Source of the DNA: a virus
Taxonomy: Duplodnaviria > Heunggongvirae > Uroviricota > Caudoviricetes
IMG/VR virus record: IMGVR_UViG_2734482773_000004
DNA: 35,714 nt
Direction: 5' to 3' (one strand)
The notes beneath the pieces are model-generated. The model saw only the letters and a program-made list of their open reading frames with translations, did no database searches and was not told where the DNA came from. Shown here piece after piece: positions 6,669 through 27,385 of the stretch; position 1 is the first letter of the stretch; each line of letters begins with the position of its first letter. Both the position numbers and the translations under genes were made by a program.

Positions 6669-8885
6669 CTAAGCGGTAACGTTCTCCTCTTCTAGTTCGT
6701 CCATCATTTTTAAATAATGCATTTCGTCACCAGTAGCTGAAAATATTGTTCTCAATTGTTTTAGGTATTTATCTGGGTCTATGTCGCCCATATCAGTAAT
6801 ATTTACCGCATCAGAGTGAGAACCTCTGTTAATGTATCTGTAGAATGCTTTGAAATCACTGTTGCTATCGTCGCGTGCCAACTTTGTTAATTCATCTTGT
6901 AGAGCATCTGTTCTATGAACAAATGCAAAATAATATTCTAGTATGTTTCTCATAATATTAGGTATTATGATTTTGTTTGCTTTGCCATCTTTTGCATCTT
7001 TTAATATTTGCCACAAAGATTGATATTCATTCTGTATGCTGTTTTTTTGTATTTCAGTAATTATACTAAAATCATTTTTCGTTACTCTACCTAGATAATA
7101 GTTTTTCTTAAATAGTTTGTCTTCTCTGCTTTTAGGAGATAGCTTAATAAGTTCATGAAAGAAATAAAGATTGTGAGTAAGGATTAATACCTTCTTTGTT
7201 AATTCATTTTTTATAATGTGGTGATGAATAATTGATGCGATGTCGTAGACATAGTTTTGCGATAGACTAGATATTGGATCGTCAATAACAATAAAAATAT
7301 CCCTGCTATCGGTATCATTTTTATCGGTTTTACCTTTACAGCACTCTAAAAAATAAAGAAACGTTATTAGTGTTTTTTCACCTTCGCTAAGAGATCTATA
7401 AACATTTTGGTTTTTTGTATGCCCTGGTCGAGATATAATGTACATATCTTTTCTTTCTGCATGTTTTTCAATACAAAAACCAGAGATCCCTAGATTTTTT
7501 AAATGGGTGTTTATTGAGTCTATCGTAGAATCAATGTTAGATATTTTATCTCGCAATGCTTTTATTGTGAGATTATTTTCTTTTCCTTGTTGCTCAATAT
7601 TATTTAATTCATCATGAACTTTCTTTTTGATATCAAAGAATTTTTCTTTGTGTTTGGATAAATTCTCTAAATCATCGCTGCAAAAAGCATGGAGAGCCCC
7701 CCAAACTTGTTTTCCGATTTTATTCTCATACTCTTTGAGTTTTTTAACCTTATCATTTATGTCTCTTATTTTTTTGTTAACAGCGTCTATGCTTTCCTGA
7801 ACATGATTTTCTAGTTCTTTATCAATTTCTAATGTAACGCATGTTGATGGATTGTTGATCTTATCAATAATGTTTATTAAATTTTTTTCTGCAATGTTTT
7901 GCAATATTTTAATATTGGAAATAATGATCTCTTTATCTTTCTCATTGATTAGTGCACATGATGATATATTGTTTTGTATTTCGTTAAAATGATATATGGT
8001 ATTTTTCTCATAAACTGACTTTATATCTGAGAGCTGTTTTACTTTCTTTGAATAACTTTCGTCAAATATTGATTTAAGGGCATTTAAAAATTCGTGACTA
8101 ATAGTTTTTTCCTGACAAAACGGACATGTAGAACCGTCTAAATAATGTTCTTTACCTTTTTTTACCCAGTCAAGATTATGAAGTTTATTAATGGTTTCTG
8201 ATAAATAGCTATTGCTTGTATCTATTATAGGGGTTGCTAATGTATTTACATCATCAATTGATGGGGTATATGGGTGTAAAGGAGTTATTAATGCGGTTTC
8301 ATTGTTTCTATTTTCTAATAGTATAGAGTATTCTTTTGCTATATCATTTAAATTAATAAAGGTGATTGGTGAGGATGATTTTATCATCTCAAAAAAAGGT
8401 CTTTTATAGCCAACTTTACCTTTCATTAAGGTTTTTAGTACAGAGTTTCTGATTGGTTCTGTTTTTTTCCAGATCGATTCGATGTATTCATTTTCTTTTT
8501 TTTCCATTTCTGCTTCTAATTTCAATAACACTCCTTTTTTTTGTCTATATTGCTCTGTAAGTTGCTGTTTAATTGCTTCTTTTTTAATTAATTGTTTTTC
8601 AATATCTGCATTTTCTTTACTTAATGTAAAAACACCTTTTTGTTCCTGTGCATTGTAGAAATTATCTTCAATAAATTTAGTGTTGTAAACAAGAGGTTTG
8701 TAATTGTCAAGAAGGGTACATTCACACTCGTTATAATCTGTGTGTGTAGAGTCGTAGAAATAATTTGAAATGGTAGATTTGCCACAACCATTTTGGCCGT
8801 ATAGTATGTTTACTCTTTTTTCAAGATTCAGTATTGTGAAGGCGTCTTTCTTATAACTGGTAACATTTTTTAATCTAAGTTCCAT
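6669..8885 (-). CDS. Cargo: Rad50/RloC-like ABC ATPase with CxxC zinc-hook-like motif and putative C-terminal nuclease domain, 738 aa
   Basis: Walker A GQNGCGKST, long coiled-coil insert with CPFC, signature LSEGEKT, Walker B IFIVIDDP, H-loop LTHN; C-terminal R-x3-E...H pattern; AT-rich; in the A-cos variable locus. Confidence 0.7.
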   Translation of the reverse strand: MELRLKNVTSYKKDAFTILNLEKRVNILYGQNGCGKSTISNYFYDSTHTDYNECECTLLDNYKPLVYNTKFIEDNFYNAQEQKGVFTLSKENADIEKQLIKKEAIKQQLTEQYRQKKGVLLKLEAEMEKKENEYIESIWKKTEPIRNSVLKTLMKGKVGYKRPFFEMIKSSSPITFINLNDIAKEYSILLENRNNETALITPLHPYTPSIDDVNTLATPIIDTSNSYLSETINKLHNLDWVKKGKEHYLDGSTCPFCQEKTISHEFLNALKSIFDESYSKKVKQLSDIKSVYEKNTIYHFNEIQNNISSCALINEKDKEIIISNIKILQNIAEKNLINIIDKINNPSTCVTLEIDKELENHVQESIDAVNKKIRDINDKVKKLKEYENKIGKQVWGALHAFCSDDLENLSKHKEKFFDIKKKVHDELNNIEQQGKENNLTIKALRDKISNIDSTIDSINTHLKNLGISGFCIEKHAERKDMYIISRPGHTKNQNVYRSLSEGEKTLITFLYFLECCKGKTDKNDTDSRDIFIVIDDPISSLSQNYVYDIASIIHHHIIKNELTKKVLILTHNLYFFHELIKLSPKSREDKLFKKNYYLGRVTKNDFSIITEIQKNSIQNEYQSLWQILKDAKDGKANKIIIPNIMRNILEYYFAFVHRTDALQDELTKLARDDSNSDFKAFYRYINRGSHSDAVNITDMGDIDPDKYLKQLRTIFSATGDEMHYLKMMDELEEENVTA

Positions 8886-18124: not shown

Positions 18125-18575
18125 GTTTAAGCGTTTTGAAGACCGGCTGGCCGGACTGGCTGAATCGCTGTCACCGTCTGGGCGTCGGCGACTGGCGATA
18201 GATATTGCGAAGAAGCTGCGCCAGCGCCAGCAGCAGCGAATTAAATTACAAAAAGCCCCGGATGGTACGCCGTATGTACCGAGAAAAAACCAACCAGTAC
18301 GTAATAAGAAAGGCCGGATAAAGCGGGAAATGTTTGTGAAATTACGCACTAACCGGTTTATGAAAGCAACAGGTAGCGAGAGTGCGGCGGTGGTGGCGTT
18401 TGCCAGCGGAGTACAACGAATTGCGCGAGTACATCAATTAGGGCTTAGGGATAAGCCGGGGCGTAATAGTGCTGTGGTGGAATATCCTGTTCGTGAGTTA
18501 TTTGGTTTTGACAAGGAATCTATACAATTGATAGAAAGGGAGTTATTAGTGATTCTATCGAAAGATGTTATATGA
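18117..18575 (+). CDS. S: Tail completion protein S, 152 aa, mosaic 3' portion
   Basis: N-terminus MNEFKRFEDRL as recalled for P2 S; DNA becomes AT-rich from about 18240, so the distal part looks exchanged. Confidence 0.85.
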   Translation: MNEFKRFEDRLAGLAESLSPSGRRRLAIDIAKKLRQRQQQRIKLQKAPDGTPYVPRKNQPVRNKKGRIKREMFVKLRTNRFMKATGSESAAVVAFASGVQRIARVHQLGLRDKPGRNSAVVEYPVRELFGFDKESIQLIERELLVILSKDVI

Positions 18576-19327
18576 GACGGGTGTTTGTGGATAAAAAGTT
18601 TTCCATTTTGAGAAAAAGAGTAAAGCATTCTCAAAAGAAAGTTATGGATTGTATTATTGCTGACCATAATGCTGATATATGTGTGTTATGCGGGAGTTCT
18701 GACGATATTACTCGTGAGCACATTATTCCTCAGTGGGCCTTTGAGTCAAATGCTGAAAAATCTTTAATTAATAAAAAGAATAATCAGTCAACTCATTACA
18801 TTAAAGCCACTGTACCAGCATGCAGAGTGTGCAATTCTGATTTGCTGGGAGTGTTTGAGTATAACCTGAAGAAATTTCTTACGGAAAAGAGGGGGGGTGA
18901 GTTAACAGATTATGAATATGATTGCATCATATGGTGGTTGCAATACATGGGCTTCAAGTTGCAATTAATGGATTTACGGACCCGCTTTCTCAGGTATAAA
19001 GGGGGTGATTATATCCCTTTTCTTGCAAACTTCCCGGTTGCAATGTTTTGGGGGGATGTCGATACGACGCCGGGGGATGTCTTCAGGATTATACGAAAAT
19101 CGCGACGCAATCTGATGTCGAAATGGAAGGATAAAAAACATAATTCTTTGATGGTTTTTGAAACATCAAACAAGAGTTTTCATTTCTTTCATAAGGTTGA
19201 TGAATTTATTTTTATTGAAATACCTCAGGTTAAGAAGGCGTTTTTCTTCTTTTTTAATAAAGAATTTGACAGCCATGATTTAGCTCATGAGGAGTGTATG
19301 AAGATTATAGAGAAGTGCTACAACTAA
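18572..19327 (+). CDS. Cargo: HNH-motif nuclease-like protein with unknown C-terminal domain, 251 aa
   Basis: CVLCG...REHIIPQW...N...CRVCN follows the HNH zinc-finger pattern; ATG overlaps S stop; AT-rich; occupies the P2 orf30 locus between S and V. Confidence 0.7.
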   Translation: MRRVFVDKKFSILRKRVKHSQKKVMDCIIADHNADICVLCGSSDDITREHIIPQWAFESNAEKSLINKKNNQSTHYIKATVPACRVCNSDLLGVFEYNLKKFLTEKRGGELTDYEYDCIIWWLQYMGFKLQLMDLRTRFLRYKGGDYIPFLANFPVAMFWGDVDTTPGDVFRIIRKSRRNLMSKWKDKKHNSLMVFETSNKSFHFFHKVDEFIFIEIPQVKKAFFFFFNKEFDSHDLAHEECMKIIEKCYN

Positions 19328-21830: not shown

Positions 21831-24149
21831 ATGAGCACAAAATTCAGAACCGTTATCACCACTGCCGGTGCAGCAAAGCTGGCAGCGGCAACCGCACCGG
21901 GAGGGCGGAAGGTCAACATTACCACGATGGCCGTCGGGGATGGCGGTGGTAAATTGCCTGTCCCGGATGCCGGACAGACCGGGCTTATCCACGAAGTCTG
22001 GCGACATGCGCTGAACAAAATCAGCCAGGACAAACGAAACAGTAATTATATTATCGCAGAGCTGGTTATTCCGCCGGAGGTGGGCGGTTTCTGGATGCGT
22101 GAGCTTGGCCTGTACGATGATGCAGGAACGTTAATTGCCGTGGCGAACATGGCCGAAAGTTATAAGCCTGCCCTTGCCGAAGGCTCAGGGCGTTCGCAGA
22201 CCTGCCGCATGGTCATCATCGTCAGCAGTGTGGCCTCAGTGGAGCTGACCATTGACACCACAACGGTGATGGCAACGCAGGATTACGTTGATGACAAAAT
22301 TGCAGAGCACGAACAGTCACGACGTCACCCGGACGCCTCGCTGACCGCAAAAGGTTTTACTCAGCTAAGCAGCGCGACCAACAGCACGTCTGAAACACTG
22401 GCCGCAACGCCGAAAGCGGTAAAGGCCGCCTATGACCTTGCTAACGGGAAATATACTGCGCAGGATGCCACCACGGCGCGAAAAGGCCTTGTTCAGCTCA
22501 GTAGTGCGACCAACAGCTCGTCTGAAACGCTCGCCGCAACGCCGAAAGCGGTAAAGGCAGCATATGACCTTGCTAACGGGAAATACACTGCACAGGACGC
22601 CACCACCGCGCGAAAAGGCCTTGTTCAGCTTAGTAGCGCCACCAACAGCGATTCTGAAACGCTTGCGGCAACACCAAAGGCGGTTAAGACAGCGTATGAC
22701 CTTGCTAACGGGAAATACACTGCACAGGATGCCACCACTGCGCGAAAAGGTCTTGTCCAGCTAAGTAGCGCCACCAACAGTGATTCTGAAACCCTCGCGG
22801 CAACGCCAAAAGCAGTGAAGTCTGCCTATGACAATGCTGAAAAACGTCTTCAGAAAGATCAGAACGGTGCGGATATTCCGGGAAAGGATACCTTCACGAA
22901 AAATATCGGAGCCTGTCGTGCTTATAGCGGCGCTTTGAGCACTGAAGCCGGAAACTGGACAACCGCTCAGTTTATTGAATGGCTGGATTCCCGTGGTGCA
23001 TTTAATCATCCGTACTGGATGTGCAAAGGCTCCTGGTCATATGCAAATAACAAAATCATTACGGATACCGGATGTGGTGATATCCACCTGGCTGGTTGTG
23101 TCGTCGAGGTCATGGGAACTAAATCTGCAATCACTATCCGAGTGACCACGCCGACAACATCAAGCGGTGGCGGTACAACCAGCGCGCAATTCACTTACAT
23201 TAATCATGGGGACGGCTACTCCCCCGGCTGGCGTCGTGACTGGAATCGTCAGGGCGACTCAATGACCGGAACGATTAATCAGGATGGCGGAAGCCAGAAT
23301 GCCTATATGTCTACGGCCTTATGTTCAGGCACCAGAGGCGGCAAAAAATATCTCAGAAAGTTTCGTGGTGGAGAAGGAGACACTATCTGGCATGAAACAG
23401 TACAGGGCGGGGTAGTTCGCTGGGCGACTGGTAATACTGATGCTCAGGAAGAATTATCACTCAGCTCCGCTTATGGTCTCCGTTCAAGAGGTGAGATTAC
23501 ATCAAGCAGTGCTAATGGTCTGCGCATTGCTTATGGCAATTATGGATTCTTTATCAGGAATGATGGCAGCAGCACTTATTTTATGTTGACTAAATCAGGT
23601 GACAGATTAGGCACTTATAATAATTTAAGACCACTGATTATAAATGATGCCACGGGTGCTGTATCAATGGGGCATGGCCTGAGTGTTACTGGTGATATTG
23701 CCTCAAGTACCAAAGTACGTGCCGGTAGCGGGAAAAAATTCACGGTCAGCAGCAGTAATACATCCACGAAGGAAGCCGCATTCAATTTGTGGGGCAACTC
23801 AAGTCGTCCGGTGGTGGCTGAATTAGGTGATGATGCAGGCTGGCATTTTTACAGTCAGAGAAATACAGATAACAGCATCACTTTTGCTGTTAACGGGCAG
23901 GTATCACCATCTAACTATAGTAATTTTGATTCACGCTATGTCCGGGATATCCGGCTTGGTGGTGCTGCCACATACAAACCTGCGAACAATGGCATGACAT
24001 GGACACATCAGGCACCGTCCGGGTGTGTATATTCCGGCATTATTGTTCAGGATACCGGCTCAAACTCTGCCGATAACATTGGTGGCGTATATTACAGACC
24101 GGTGCAGAAATACATTAACGGGACTTGGTATAACGTGGCGCAGGTATAA
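21831..24149 (+). CDS. H: Tail fibre protein H, 772 aa, with four tandem 44-aa repeats and a divergent AT-rich C-terminal domain
   Basis: Position after I; about 100 aa longer than recalled P2 H (669 aa), roughly the size of the repeat expansion; C-terminal half lies in lower-GC DNA. Confidence 0.88.
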   Translation: MSTKFRTVITTAGAAKLAAATAPGGRKVNITTMAVGDGGGKLPVPDAGQTGLIHEVWRHALNKISQDKRNSNYIIAELVIPPEVGGFWMRELGLYDDAGTLIAVANMAESYKPALAEGSGRSQTCRMVIIVSSVASVELTIDTTTVMATQDYVDDKIAEHEQSRRHPDASLTAKGFTQLSSATNSTSETLAATPKAVKAAYDLANGKYTAQDATTARKGLVQLSSATNSSSETLAATPKAVKAAYDLANGKYTAQDATTARKGLVQLSSATNSDSETLAATPKAVKTAYDLANGKYTAQDATTARKGLVQLSSATNSDSETLAATPKAVKSAYDNAEKRLQKDQNGADIPGKDTFTKNIGACRAYSGALSTEAGNWTTAQFIEWLDSRGAFNHPYWMCKGSWSYANNKIITDTGCGDIHLAGCVVEVMGTKSAITIRVTTPTTSSGGGTTSAQFTYINHGDGYSPGWRRDWNRQGDSMTGTINQDGGSQNAYMSTALCSGTRGGKKYLRKFRGGEGDTIWHETVQGGVVRWATGNTDAQEELSLSSAYGLRSRGEITSSSANGLRIAYGNYGFFIRNDGSSTYFMLTKSGDRLGTYNNLRPLIINDATGAVSMGHGLSVTGDIASSTKVRAGSGKKFTVSSSNTSTKEAAFNLWGNSSRPVVAELGDDAGWHFYSQRNTDNSITFAVNGQVSPSNYSNFDSRYVRDIRLGGAATYKPANNGMTWTHQAPSGCVYSGIIVQDTGSNSADNIGGVYYRPVQKYINGTWYNVAQV
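22350..22877 (+). repeat. Four tandem 132-bp (44-codon) in-frame repeats within H
   Basis: aaagg repeat anchors at 22350, 22482, 22614 and 22746 (period exactly 132); protein unit is approximately KGLVQLSSATNS-SETLAATPKAVKAAYDLANGKYTAQDATTAR. Confidence 0.9.
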
Positions 24150-24152
24150 TTT

Positions 24153-24680
24153 ATGCAGCATTTGATAAATATAACGGCAGGTAATCCAAAAACGGTTGAA
24201 CAATATCAATTGACAAAGGATTTTGATGTTGTCTGGTTTTTTACAGAAGATGGTAAGAACTGGTACGAAGAACAAAAGTATTTTGCTGATGACACGATAA
24301 AAATAGCGTACGACAAAGATAATATCATCCGCTATGTGGAAAAGGATGTGACAGCTATCAGACCGGATGGATTAAGTGTGGTTGAAGTGGCGGATATTAC
24401 TGCTAACCGACGGGCGGATATTTCAGGGGGCTGGATGTTTAAGGACGGCAAAGTGATTAAACGCATTTATACGGCAGAGGAATTACAGCAGCAGGCAGAA
24501 ATTCGGAAAGCCAGACTTCTTGCAGATGCTGAATCCGTGATTTTGCCGCTGGAGCGCGCGGTCAGACTGAACATGGCAACAGATGAGGAGCGTAGCCGAC
24601 TGGAAGCATGGGAGCGCTACAGCGTTCTGGTCAGTCGTGTGGATCCTGCAAATCCTGAATGGCCGGAAATGCCGCAATAA
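24153..24680 (+). CDS. G: Tail fibre assembly chaperone G, 175 aa
   Basis: Immediately downstream of H; length as P2 G; AT-rich 5' portion. Confidence 0.85.
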
Positions 24681-24849
24681 GTTGTATGAGCTCTGGTGTG
24701 AGCTTACATATCTATGGCACAGAGTAAAGCCTAATCTGACAGTCAGCTCTGTGCCAAAAGCAGACGTTCAAGTTATACTGTCCATTTCTGCAATCAGTCA
24801 CCTGCAACTATGCGGCCAATTGCAAAGATGGCGGTAATAAACAATAGTT

Positions 24850-24925: not shown

Positions 24926-25630
24926 TCATTTTGTTTTCATATCGTTTTTTAAGCTCTTCTGTTTGAACTCCAACCCATTAATATTCTCCATGCGAAAGTA
25001 AGTCAGCTGATGAATCACTTTCCCGTTAACCACGTTCCATGTAAAAACATTTTCGTCATACACTTTTGCTATTGCATATTCTTTATTATTCATGATAAAT
25101 ACTGTGAATTCGTTGCCGTGAACAGATGATCTACCCAGTCCTATAAAGGTAAGGGAAAAGAAGAAAGCAATGGCTGCACCGTTGAGAGCCTGAATACCAA
25201 ACTCTCTGATATTCCCTCTATCAAAGGAAGCATTTTTCTTTTCAACATGGATAGGTATCCACTGGCTCAGCAAGTGTAAAAGAACGAGCGCATTAAAAAC
25301 AAAAAGCAGCAGAATGTCGAGTGGAATGTTTAGCATGGAATATGCACCGGCCACATATACTACGCTTATCCCTAAATGTGCAGCGGCTCTTTTATGTTTA
25401 TCATCCTTCGCCCATATAAGAAAAGCAGTGGATATCGTCAATAAAGGAAATGAAAAAAGACATATACTCATAATGTCATTGCTTATCGTGGGAATGCTGA
25501 GAGTTATTAAATCCAACGGTATATTCAGCTCACTGGCGACCCCCCTTTCATAAAAATATACGGCGGCATAAAAAGCTGCCGTCAGGCCCGCTACAAATAA
25601 AGATTCTTTTTTTAAGATATAGTTGTACAT
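24926..25630 (-). CDS. Cargo: polytopic membrane protein (about 4 predicted TM helices) with small C-terminal soluble domain, 234 aa
   Basis: Hydrophobic segments at roughly residues 11-27, 45-70, 83-120 and 150-168; AT-rich; minus strand within the G-FI variable locus. Confidence 0.65.
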   Translation of the reverse strand: MYNYILKKESLFVAGLTAAFYAAVYFYERGVASELNIPLDLITLSIPTISNDIMSICLFSFPLLTISTAFLIWAKDDKHKRAAAHLGISVVYVAGAYSMLNIPLDILLLFVFNALVLLHLLSQWIPIHVEKKNASFDRGNIREFGIQALNGAAIAFFFSLTFIGLGRSSVHGNEFTVFIMNNKEYAIAKVYDENVFTWNVVNGKVIHQLTYFRMENINGLEFKQKSLKNDMKTK

Positions 25631-27123: not shown

Positions 27124-27385
27124 TGCGACACACGCTCACCAGAGCGTGAAATTTGTTCATATCTTAATTATTAAAACCTACTGAGTCCACAATGTCATTT
27201 TATCTCGCTGGAGTCCAGAGTGACCAGTTCCCAGTGATTGACAATTAATGTTGTTAGCAATGCCTGCATCTCGCTCAAAGCAGACTGTCAGATTTGACAA
27301 AGTTTTGGCTACGTAATTTGTCAGTTGGAAACTGAGTGAGTGCAAATCATGACAGGTAGGCGGATTACCCGCCTTTTCTTTGTCT

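Follow-up and report, generated by a model that had tools for sequence, protein, structure and literature searches.

A P2-like prophage with a repeat array in its tail fibre gene

The DNA analysed here, which we call the window, is a stretch of 35,714 nucleotides (IMG/VR record IMGVR_UViG_2734482773_000004) and is a P2-like prophage of E. coli. Its gene H lies between I (PF09684) and G (PF02413) in the order V-W-J-I-H-G, with the baseplate genes V, W, J and I upstream, which is also the order of the P2 reference record, and its N-terminal PF12571 match covers profile positions 1-150 of 150; both are as expected for a gpH of the P2 type. Over H, the window is 100% identical to two independent complete genomes, NZ_CP070152.1 and NZ_OW967003.1. 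RefSeq annotates H in the former as 'tail fiber protein' (WP_047659090.1), and the open reading frames (ORFs) flanking H in the window follow the same gene order as that annotation. The features of the locus are as follows:

21831..24149, + strand: gene H, P2-type tail fibre protein, 772 aa (ORF, Pfam domains, RefSeq annotation)
21831..22283, + strand: N-terminal tail-collar (baseplate-attachment) domain, aa 1-151 (PF12571, E 1.6e-58)
22350..22481, + strand: repeat unit 1, aa 174-217, KGFTQLSSATNSTSETLAATPKAVKAAYDLANGKYTAQDATTAR (tandem-repeat and Pfam calls)
22482..22613, + strand: repeat unit 2, aa 218-261 (tandem-repeat and Pfam calls, anchor match)
22564..22764, + strand: alternate-frame (+1) ORF of 66 aa inside the array (ORF list)
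22614..22745, + strand: repeat unit 3, aa 262-305 (tandem-repeat and Pfam calls, anchor match)
22746..22832, + strand: repeat unit 4, truncated, 29-codon core KGLVQLSSATNSDSETLAATPKAVKSAYD only (Pfam, unit alignment, anchor match)
22827..23291, + strand: shaft segment resembling Mu tail fibre S', aa 333-487 (8ju3_A domain 2, 238.6 bits)
22833..22910, + strand: post-array joint, NAEKRLQKDQNGADIPGKDTFTKNIG (aligned by phmmer to 8ju3 and 5yvq)
23460..24143, + strand: distal receptor-binding part resembling Mu tail fibre S, aa 544-771 (5yvq_A domain 2, 155.7 bits)
24153..24680, + strand: gene G, tail fibre assembly protein, chaperone of H (PF02413 Caudo_TAP, E 6.2e-34; RefSeq annotation)

The Pfam calls in H are PF12571, four stretches of PF03406 and PF21446, the last being a T4 gp34-type trimerisation domain at aa 540-604 (E 6.4e-26). 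The distal part of the protein is a mosaic of Mu fibre sequences, S'-like and then S-like. From the homology to the Mu S and S' structures, together with the gp34-type domain, we infer that H would be a trimeric fibre of the virion that binds a receptor on the host. The two genes downstream of G had no match in PADLOC or Pfam. We rejected an invertible-segment tail fibre of the Mu G, P1 C or e14 P type for want of suitable inverted repeats and of an invertase: no inverted copy of fibre sequence occurs around H-G, where the only inverted pairs are 20-36 nt long at 72-80% complementarity, and neither a second fibre/chaperone pair nor an invertase is present around H.

The periodicity of H noted in the preliminary description is borne out by Tandem Repeats Finder, which places an array at 22361-22832 with a period of 132, 3.6 copies, 87% matches, 0% indels and a score of 671, and by a separate repeat search that returned 226-nt copies at 22349, 22481 and 22613, again spaced by 132 nt. 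The units start at 22350, 22482, 22614 and 22746, in frame 0 of H (aa 174, 218, 262 and 306). A 23-nt anchor pattern matches the last three of these starts, with 0 matches in 100 shuffles; unit 1 lies outside the pattern, since it opens with KGFTQ instead of KGLVQ. All four units score as PF03406, the 'Phage tail fibre repeat', with E 2.6e-77 and 254.6 bits in total where the cut-off is 22, and match the profile end to end, the best stretch spanning positions 1-41 of 42. The preliminary description had reported four in-frame 132-bp repeats at 22350-22877; the spacing, the frame and the assignment to H stand, but the fourth copy contributes only 29 codons (87 bp) of repeat and ends at 22832. 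Its remainder, up to 22877, is unrelated sequence, unit 4 is only 61-64% identical to the other units when compared over the full 132 nt, and the true span of the array is 483 nt (22350-22832) rather than 528. The array is thus real but ordinary, its repeats belonging to a known, catalogued family and its tail fibre gene being annotated.

The array also contains the alternate-frame ORF, the peptide of which is self-repeating (MTLLTGNTLHR occurs twice). Where the units differ, the substitutions occupy third codon positions in the frame of H. We reject a coding role for this ORF, which is intact in only 7 of the 53 four-copy alleles described below; it was correctly regarded from the outset as a spurious by-product of the repeats.

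The array in relatives and in other phages

The H protein of P2 (NP_046775.1) has 669 aa and two units, compared with 772 aa and four units in the window. The two genes share their position, the N-terminal collar domain, the repeat family and the register of the units from aa 174. At the DNA level, 60-nt windows across the first ~700 nt show 87-100% identity, the figure for nt 1-726 is 95.6%, and homology ends at about gene nt 720, within unit 2 after 'KAVK'. P2 has one full unit and one truncated after 'KAVK', which is fused to ...TVMDETNKKAPLNSPALTG, and its distal module is unrelated to the Mu S'/S-like module of the window. The window protein was initially noted to be about 100 aa longer than that of P2, and this is accurate: the excess is 103 aa, of which 88 aa come from two units of 44 aa and 15 aa from the distal part (438 versus 423 aa).

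A protein search with the N-terminal 173 aa returned almost solely 'partial' proteins of at most 303 aa. These are useless for counting copies, and we therefore used IMG/VR loci. The relatives are the 80 best N-terminal matches in IMG/VR to the 173-aa query, a non-random sample in which the N-terminal domain is 98-100% identical. Using an HMM built from the window's own units, we counted the units in the 77 complete H genes of this set: 53 genes have four units, 12 have two, 10 have five and two have three, and the 44-aa spacing from aa 174 is kept in all units of all 77 genes. P2-like H genes of E. coli thus most often have four copies, and the comparison of copy number suggested at the start gives two in P2 and two to five in the family. 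The Salmonella phage PSP3 (Eganvirus, a different genus) has three units in the same 44-aa register, and genera further removed carry one to three units. Among the 5,426 complete E. coli genomes, 174 cover at least 80% of H; matching places number 1 to 11 per genome, with a median of 1. In the 40 listed of these 174, H aligns as a single ungapped piece over the full 2319 bp at 97.6-100% identity; apart from the two genomes with 100% identity, the other 38 listed matches have the same length and are 97.6-98.5% identical. The P2-like phages vB_YpM_115, vB_YpM_117 and vB_YpM_46, plated on Yersinia pestis, are 95-98% identical to the window over the first 2129 nt of H, ungapped and including all four units, and the difference from the window is confined to the last ~190 nt, that is, the tip.

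The unit is also found in fibres of other phages. The PF03406 domain occurs in lambda Stf and in the collagen-like fibres of EHEC prophages (PMC3368898), where the units are interspersed with collagen or coiled-coil sequence, whereas the window has a head-to-tail array with a fixed 44-aa period. The S protein of Mu (gp49; PDB 5yvq, 9ki1, 8ju3) carries the unit once, at residues 117-160, and the '...RLAKDRNGADIP.K..F..N.G' joint comes after it just as in the window H. This joint is common to the end of the constant part of Mu S and the start of Mu S', and the distal parts of Mu S' and S are homologous to H aa 333-487 and aa 544-771, respectively. Mu differs from the window in having a different N-terminus and an invertible G segment.

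These distributions bear on the idea that the repeat is selected mainly as a DNA-homology linker, which allows distal host-range modules to be swapped between unrelated phages, with the length of the shaft being secondary. Such a role would fit the relationship between P2 and the window, which run collinear as far as the unit 2 core and are unrelated beyond it, and also the finding that at least 10 different distal modules follow one and the same combination of N-terminus and array. The unit adjoins the variable part in Mu S, and it recurs in lambda Stf and the EHEC fibres. The title of a 1992 article by Haggard-Ljungquist et al. speaks of tail fibre genes being transferred horizontally between unrelated phages. 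However, a role in DNA homology would not explain why the protein sequence of the units is under strong purifying selection while synonymous sites are free to change (dN/dS between units 0.01-0.11), and a single copy would be enough for it. Moreover, every examined allele with three, four or five copies has the same post-array sequence behind its last unit, and the joints to the distal modules must therefore lie further downstream and not in the array. We consider it unlikely that linkage is what the repeat is mainly selected for.

Divergence between the units

In the preliminary description, the copies were called near-identical and were taken to have expanded recently by slipped recombination. 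The first statement holds for the protein, in which units 1-3 differ from one another at 2-4 of 44 codons, but it does not hold for the DNA, in which the same units are only 82.6-87.9% identical (12-17% diverged). Among units 1-3 there are 16-23 nucleotide differences, 12-17 of them at third codon positions, and exact matches between adjacent units reach at most 35 nt; the near-identical DNA copies and long exact matches that mark a recent expansion or a VNTR were not found in the H array. Synonymous divergence (dS, Nei-Gojobori) is 0.48-0.81 among units 1-3 and 0.94-1.36 between these and the core of unit 4. For the N-terminal domain, comparison of the window with 52 four-copy relatives gives a median dS of 0.066, far below the values between units. 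The copies thus separated long before these prophages diverged. The low dN/dS shows that the protein sequence of the units is held nearly constant by purifying selection, with synonymous sites having diverged.

In most of the alleles examined, each unit of the window shares 91-99% identity with the relative's unit in that position, compared with 80-88% with the other units. The identity of unit 1 to its counterpart in relatives is 91-98.5%, compared with 80-88% to units 2 and 3; units 2 and 3 each have their best match in the relatives' unit 2 and unit 3, respectively, in most of the alleles shown; and the core of unit 4 matches the last unit of relatives with three, four or five copies at 91-99% identity. 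The units are thus positional orthologues of the units in relatives.

A recent origin of the four copies in this lineage, through slipped-strand or unequal recombination that left them still nearly identical, would account for the exact 132-bp spacing without indels, for the few residues that separate units 1-3, and for the range of two to five copies among relatives; indeed, truly recent duplications are present in other alleles (see below). It is very hard to reconcile with an inter-unit DNA identity of 83-88% and the dS values given above, with units that are closer to their positional counterparts in most relatives examined than to their own neighbours, and with four copies being the modal state. 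The 40 listed complete-genome matches carry the 2319-bp gene in one ungapped piece, and the register is common to PSP3. We thus abandon the recent expansion as a very improbable account of the array in this window.

Exchange between units and copy-number change

To follow individual units through the family, we painted each array at the 25 sites that separate the consensus sequences of units 1-3. The window's own array paints in the canonical order 1-2-3 with the terminal unit after it, and no trace of recent change is visible in it. Other alleles have been rearranged: units 3 and 4 of locus L078 are near-identical duplicates, as are units 2 and 3 of L008, which are identical in type, and units 2 and 3 are swapped in L037. 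A type-3 tract occupies the second half of unit 2 in L027, L036 and the complete genome L086, and the first two thirds of unit 2 in L079 and L080.

The array also stands out in its diversity. Among the 772-aa alleles, nucleotide diversity (pi) is 0.06-0.09 in the array compared with ~0.01-0.02 immediately on either side, and third-position pi is 0.159 compared with 0.04; silent diversity in the array is 4-9 times the level immediately on either side. Five complete genomes each show 35-56 differences from the window, 20-30 of which fall within the 483-nt array. The array is not the sole hotspot of H, as a second peak of diversity, up to 0.133, lies in the distal part at gene nt 1650-1900. Third positions that distinguish the units are polymorphic more frequently than other third positions (35/54 versus 17/78; odds ratio 6.6, p = 8e-7), and the variant matches a paralogous unit in 36 of 42 cases, but this test is partly confounded: sites that differ between units are also those freest to vary, and such sites should recur in all units, so that some overlap would arise without exchange and the test puts exchange too high. 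Firmer evidence for exchange comes from the tract patterns. The array is a local hotspot, chiefly of synonymous diversity, that apparently stems from exchange between units, and the units of the family appear still to swap tracts, with rare unequal exchanges giving rise to 3- and 5-unit variants that keep the same distal module.

Such variants are found in three clusters of genes that are each defined by their distal module. The cluster of the window itself holds 19 genes with four units and one with five (L018, the H protein of which has 816 aa, i.e. 772 + 44); the second holds nine genes with four units and one with five (L078); and the third holds eight genes with five units and one with three (L045). 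Alleles with three, four and five units are all found in complete genomes, and the copy variants are therefore not artefacts of draft assembly.

Copy-number variants that share a distal module, and the raised diversity of the array, are what one would also look for in a contingency locus, a VNTR-like array in which frequent changes of copy number within a population diversify the length of the fibre. The frequency is at odds with this notion, since only 3 of the 39 genes in the three polymorphic clusters deviate from the usual copy number of their cluster, and all 40 listed matches among the 174 complete genomes have the same length. Units diverged by 12-17%, with a longest exact match of 35 nt, are a poor substrate for frequent slippage; and every copy variant is in frame, which means that there is no on/off switching. 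We give this notion very little credence. That the repeat number itself results from collapse or expansion of the repeat during assembly has next to no probability: many database entries for H are 'partial' proteins that stop within the repeats, from which it follows that short-read assemblies struggle there, but the two independent complete genomes are identical over H, the other 38 listed genomes have the same H length, and the units are distinguishable by their divergence.

An old array and its probable role in the fibre shaft

The reading that we favour, with a probability of roughly 0.85, is that the array is an ancient structural module of the fibre shaft, with units that still recombine with one another. 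The array would sit in the proximal shaft of H, between the baseplate-attachment domain and the Mu S'/S-like receptor-binding part, and each unit would provide one structural module of a trimeric shaft, so that the number of units may help to set the length or reach of the fibre. The conserved core of the unit is the site where the H of P2 joins a different distal module. The old, distinct paralogous units are maintained by purifying selection on the protein, while diverging at synonymous sites. The preliminary description had proposed that a change of copy number would alter the length of the fibre; this effect is putative but plausible.

In an AlphaFold2 monomer model of H aa 1-363, based on a 28-sequence alignment, pLDDT is 74-94 over most of the N-terminal domain and <50 across the array, where the model is unreliable. 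The model suggests one short helix per unit, around PKAVKAAYDLA. Sequence searches of the PDB found the unit only in the Mu S entries (5yvq, 9ki1, 8ju3), in single copy, and no solved array. The cryo-EM study of Mu built only the N-terminus of the S fibre (PMC11915804), a paper from 2012 describes the PF03406 domain's structure and role as little known (PMC3368898), and our literature search found no structural or functional account of the repeat unit.

One may go further and regard the array not as a passive spacer alone but as a maintained system, in which ancient units swap tracts and now and then whole units and act as a hotspot of silent diversity, while tuning the reach of the fibre (2-5 units) to the thickness of the host's surface layer. 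We regard this extension as doubtful. If it were true, synonymous divergence itself could be favoured, as it would prevent the collapse of the array.

Implications

Beyond correct annotation, the array as an ancient shaft module matters little: it belongs to a catalogued Pfam family, it lies in a gene annotated by RefSeq, and identical or near-identical alleles occur in many sequenced E. coli genomes. For those who engineer tail fibres on P2-like scaffolds, the boundaries of the units may be usable as natural joints, with 2-5 units being tolerated. The array often breaks short-read assemblies, which leaves many 'partial' H proteins in the databases. Similarity between repeats at the protein level is a poor clock, as the DNA in this case shows the copies to be old. 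Only one aspect is mildly interesting, namely that an old array acts as a hotspot of silent diversity through the exchange of its units.

Distal fibre and incomplete fibre genes in databases

The distal part of the tail fibre protein H (aa 333-771, window 22827-24143) is a mosaic, in which aa 333-487 are similar to Mu S' (8ju3) and aa 544-771 to Mu S (5yvq), with a T4 gp34-type trimerisation domain at aa 540-604. Among the 772-aa alleles, that is, relatives' H genes of the same length as the one in the window, nt 1650-1900 of the gene form a second peak of nucleotide diversity (pi up to 0.133).

Very many NCBI entries for the H fibre are labelled 'partial' among the matches listed (P0001-P0120, retrieved with the 173-aa N-terminus of H), with lengths of about 190-303 aa, and these proteins end inside the zone of 44-aa repeats or just past it, which suggests that the array is a common break point of short-read assemblies. 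In one IMG/VR relative (L026), the H gene encodes 322 aa and the ORF ends 32 aa past the third repeat unit; this fibre gene has probably been frameshifted or disrupted.

Candidate accessory genes and a further ORF

The interval between the tail fibre assembly gene G and FI, which corresponds to the Z/fun accessory-gene slot of P2, contains two minus-strand ORFs annotated as hypothetical in RefSeq:

24926..25630, minus strand, ORF of 234 aa
26158..27123, minus strand, ORF of 321 aa
27478..28668, FI, sheath gene, downstream border of the interval

Searches of Pfam and PADLOC gave no match for either ORF. The pair is flanked by a 36-nt inverted repeat (24733-24768 / 27259-27294) that is 78% complementary and has a perfect 12-nt end (AATCTGACAGTC/GACTGTCAGATT), and that may mark the borders of an inserted cassette between G and FI. 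The same slot is occupied by a different gene in another prophage.

The mechanical ORF list also contains a single ORF in the interval that separates V from the virion morphogenesis gene:

18572..19327, plus strand, ORF of 251 aa

Neither Pfam nor PADLOC gives a match for it, and the RefSeq annotation of the identical region has two short hypothetical genes in its place.

A further minus-strand ORF comes after the A-like replication gene, at a position equivalent to the old/tin accessory-gene site of P2:

4113..6419, A-like replication gene
6669..8885, minus strand, ORF of 738 aa

Searches with its product hit AAA_13 in Pfam (E 2.8e-111) and PDC-S06, a candidate defence family, in PADLOC (E 1.6e-254), along with weak PrrC- and LmuB-like matches, and the ORF is probably an anti-phage gene carried by the prophage.
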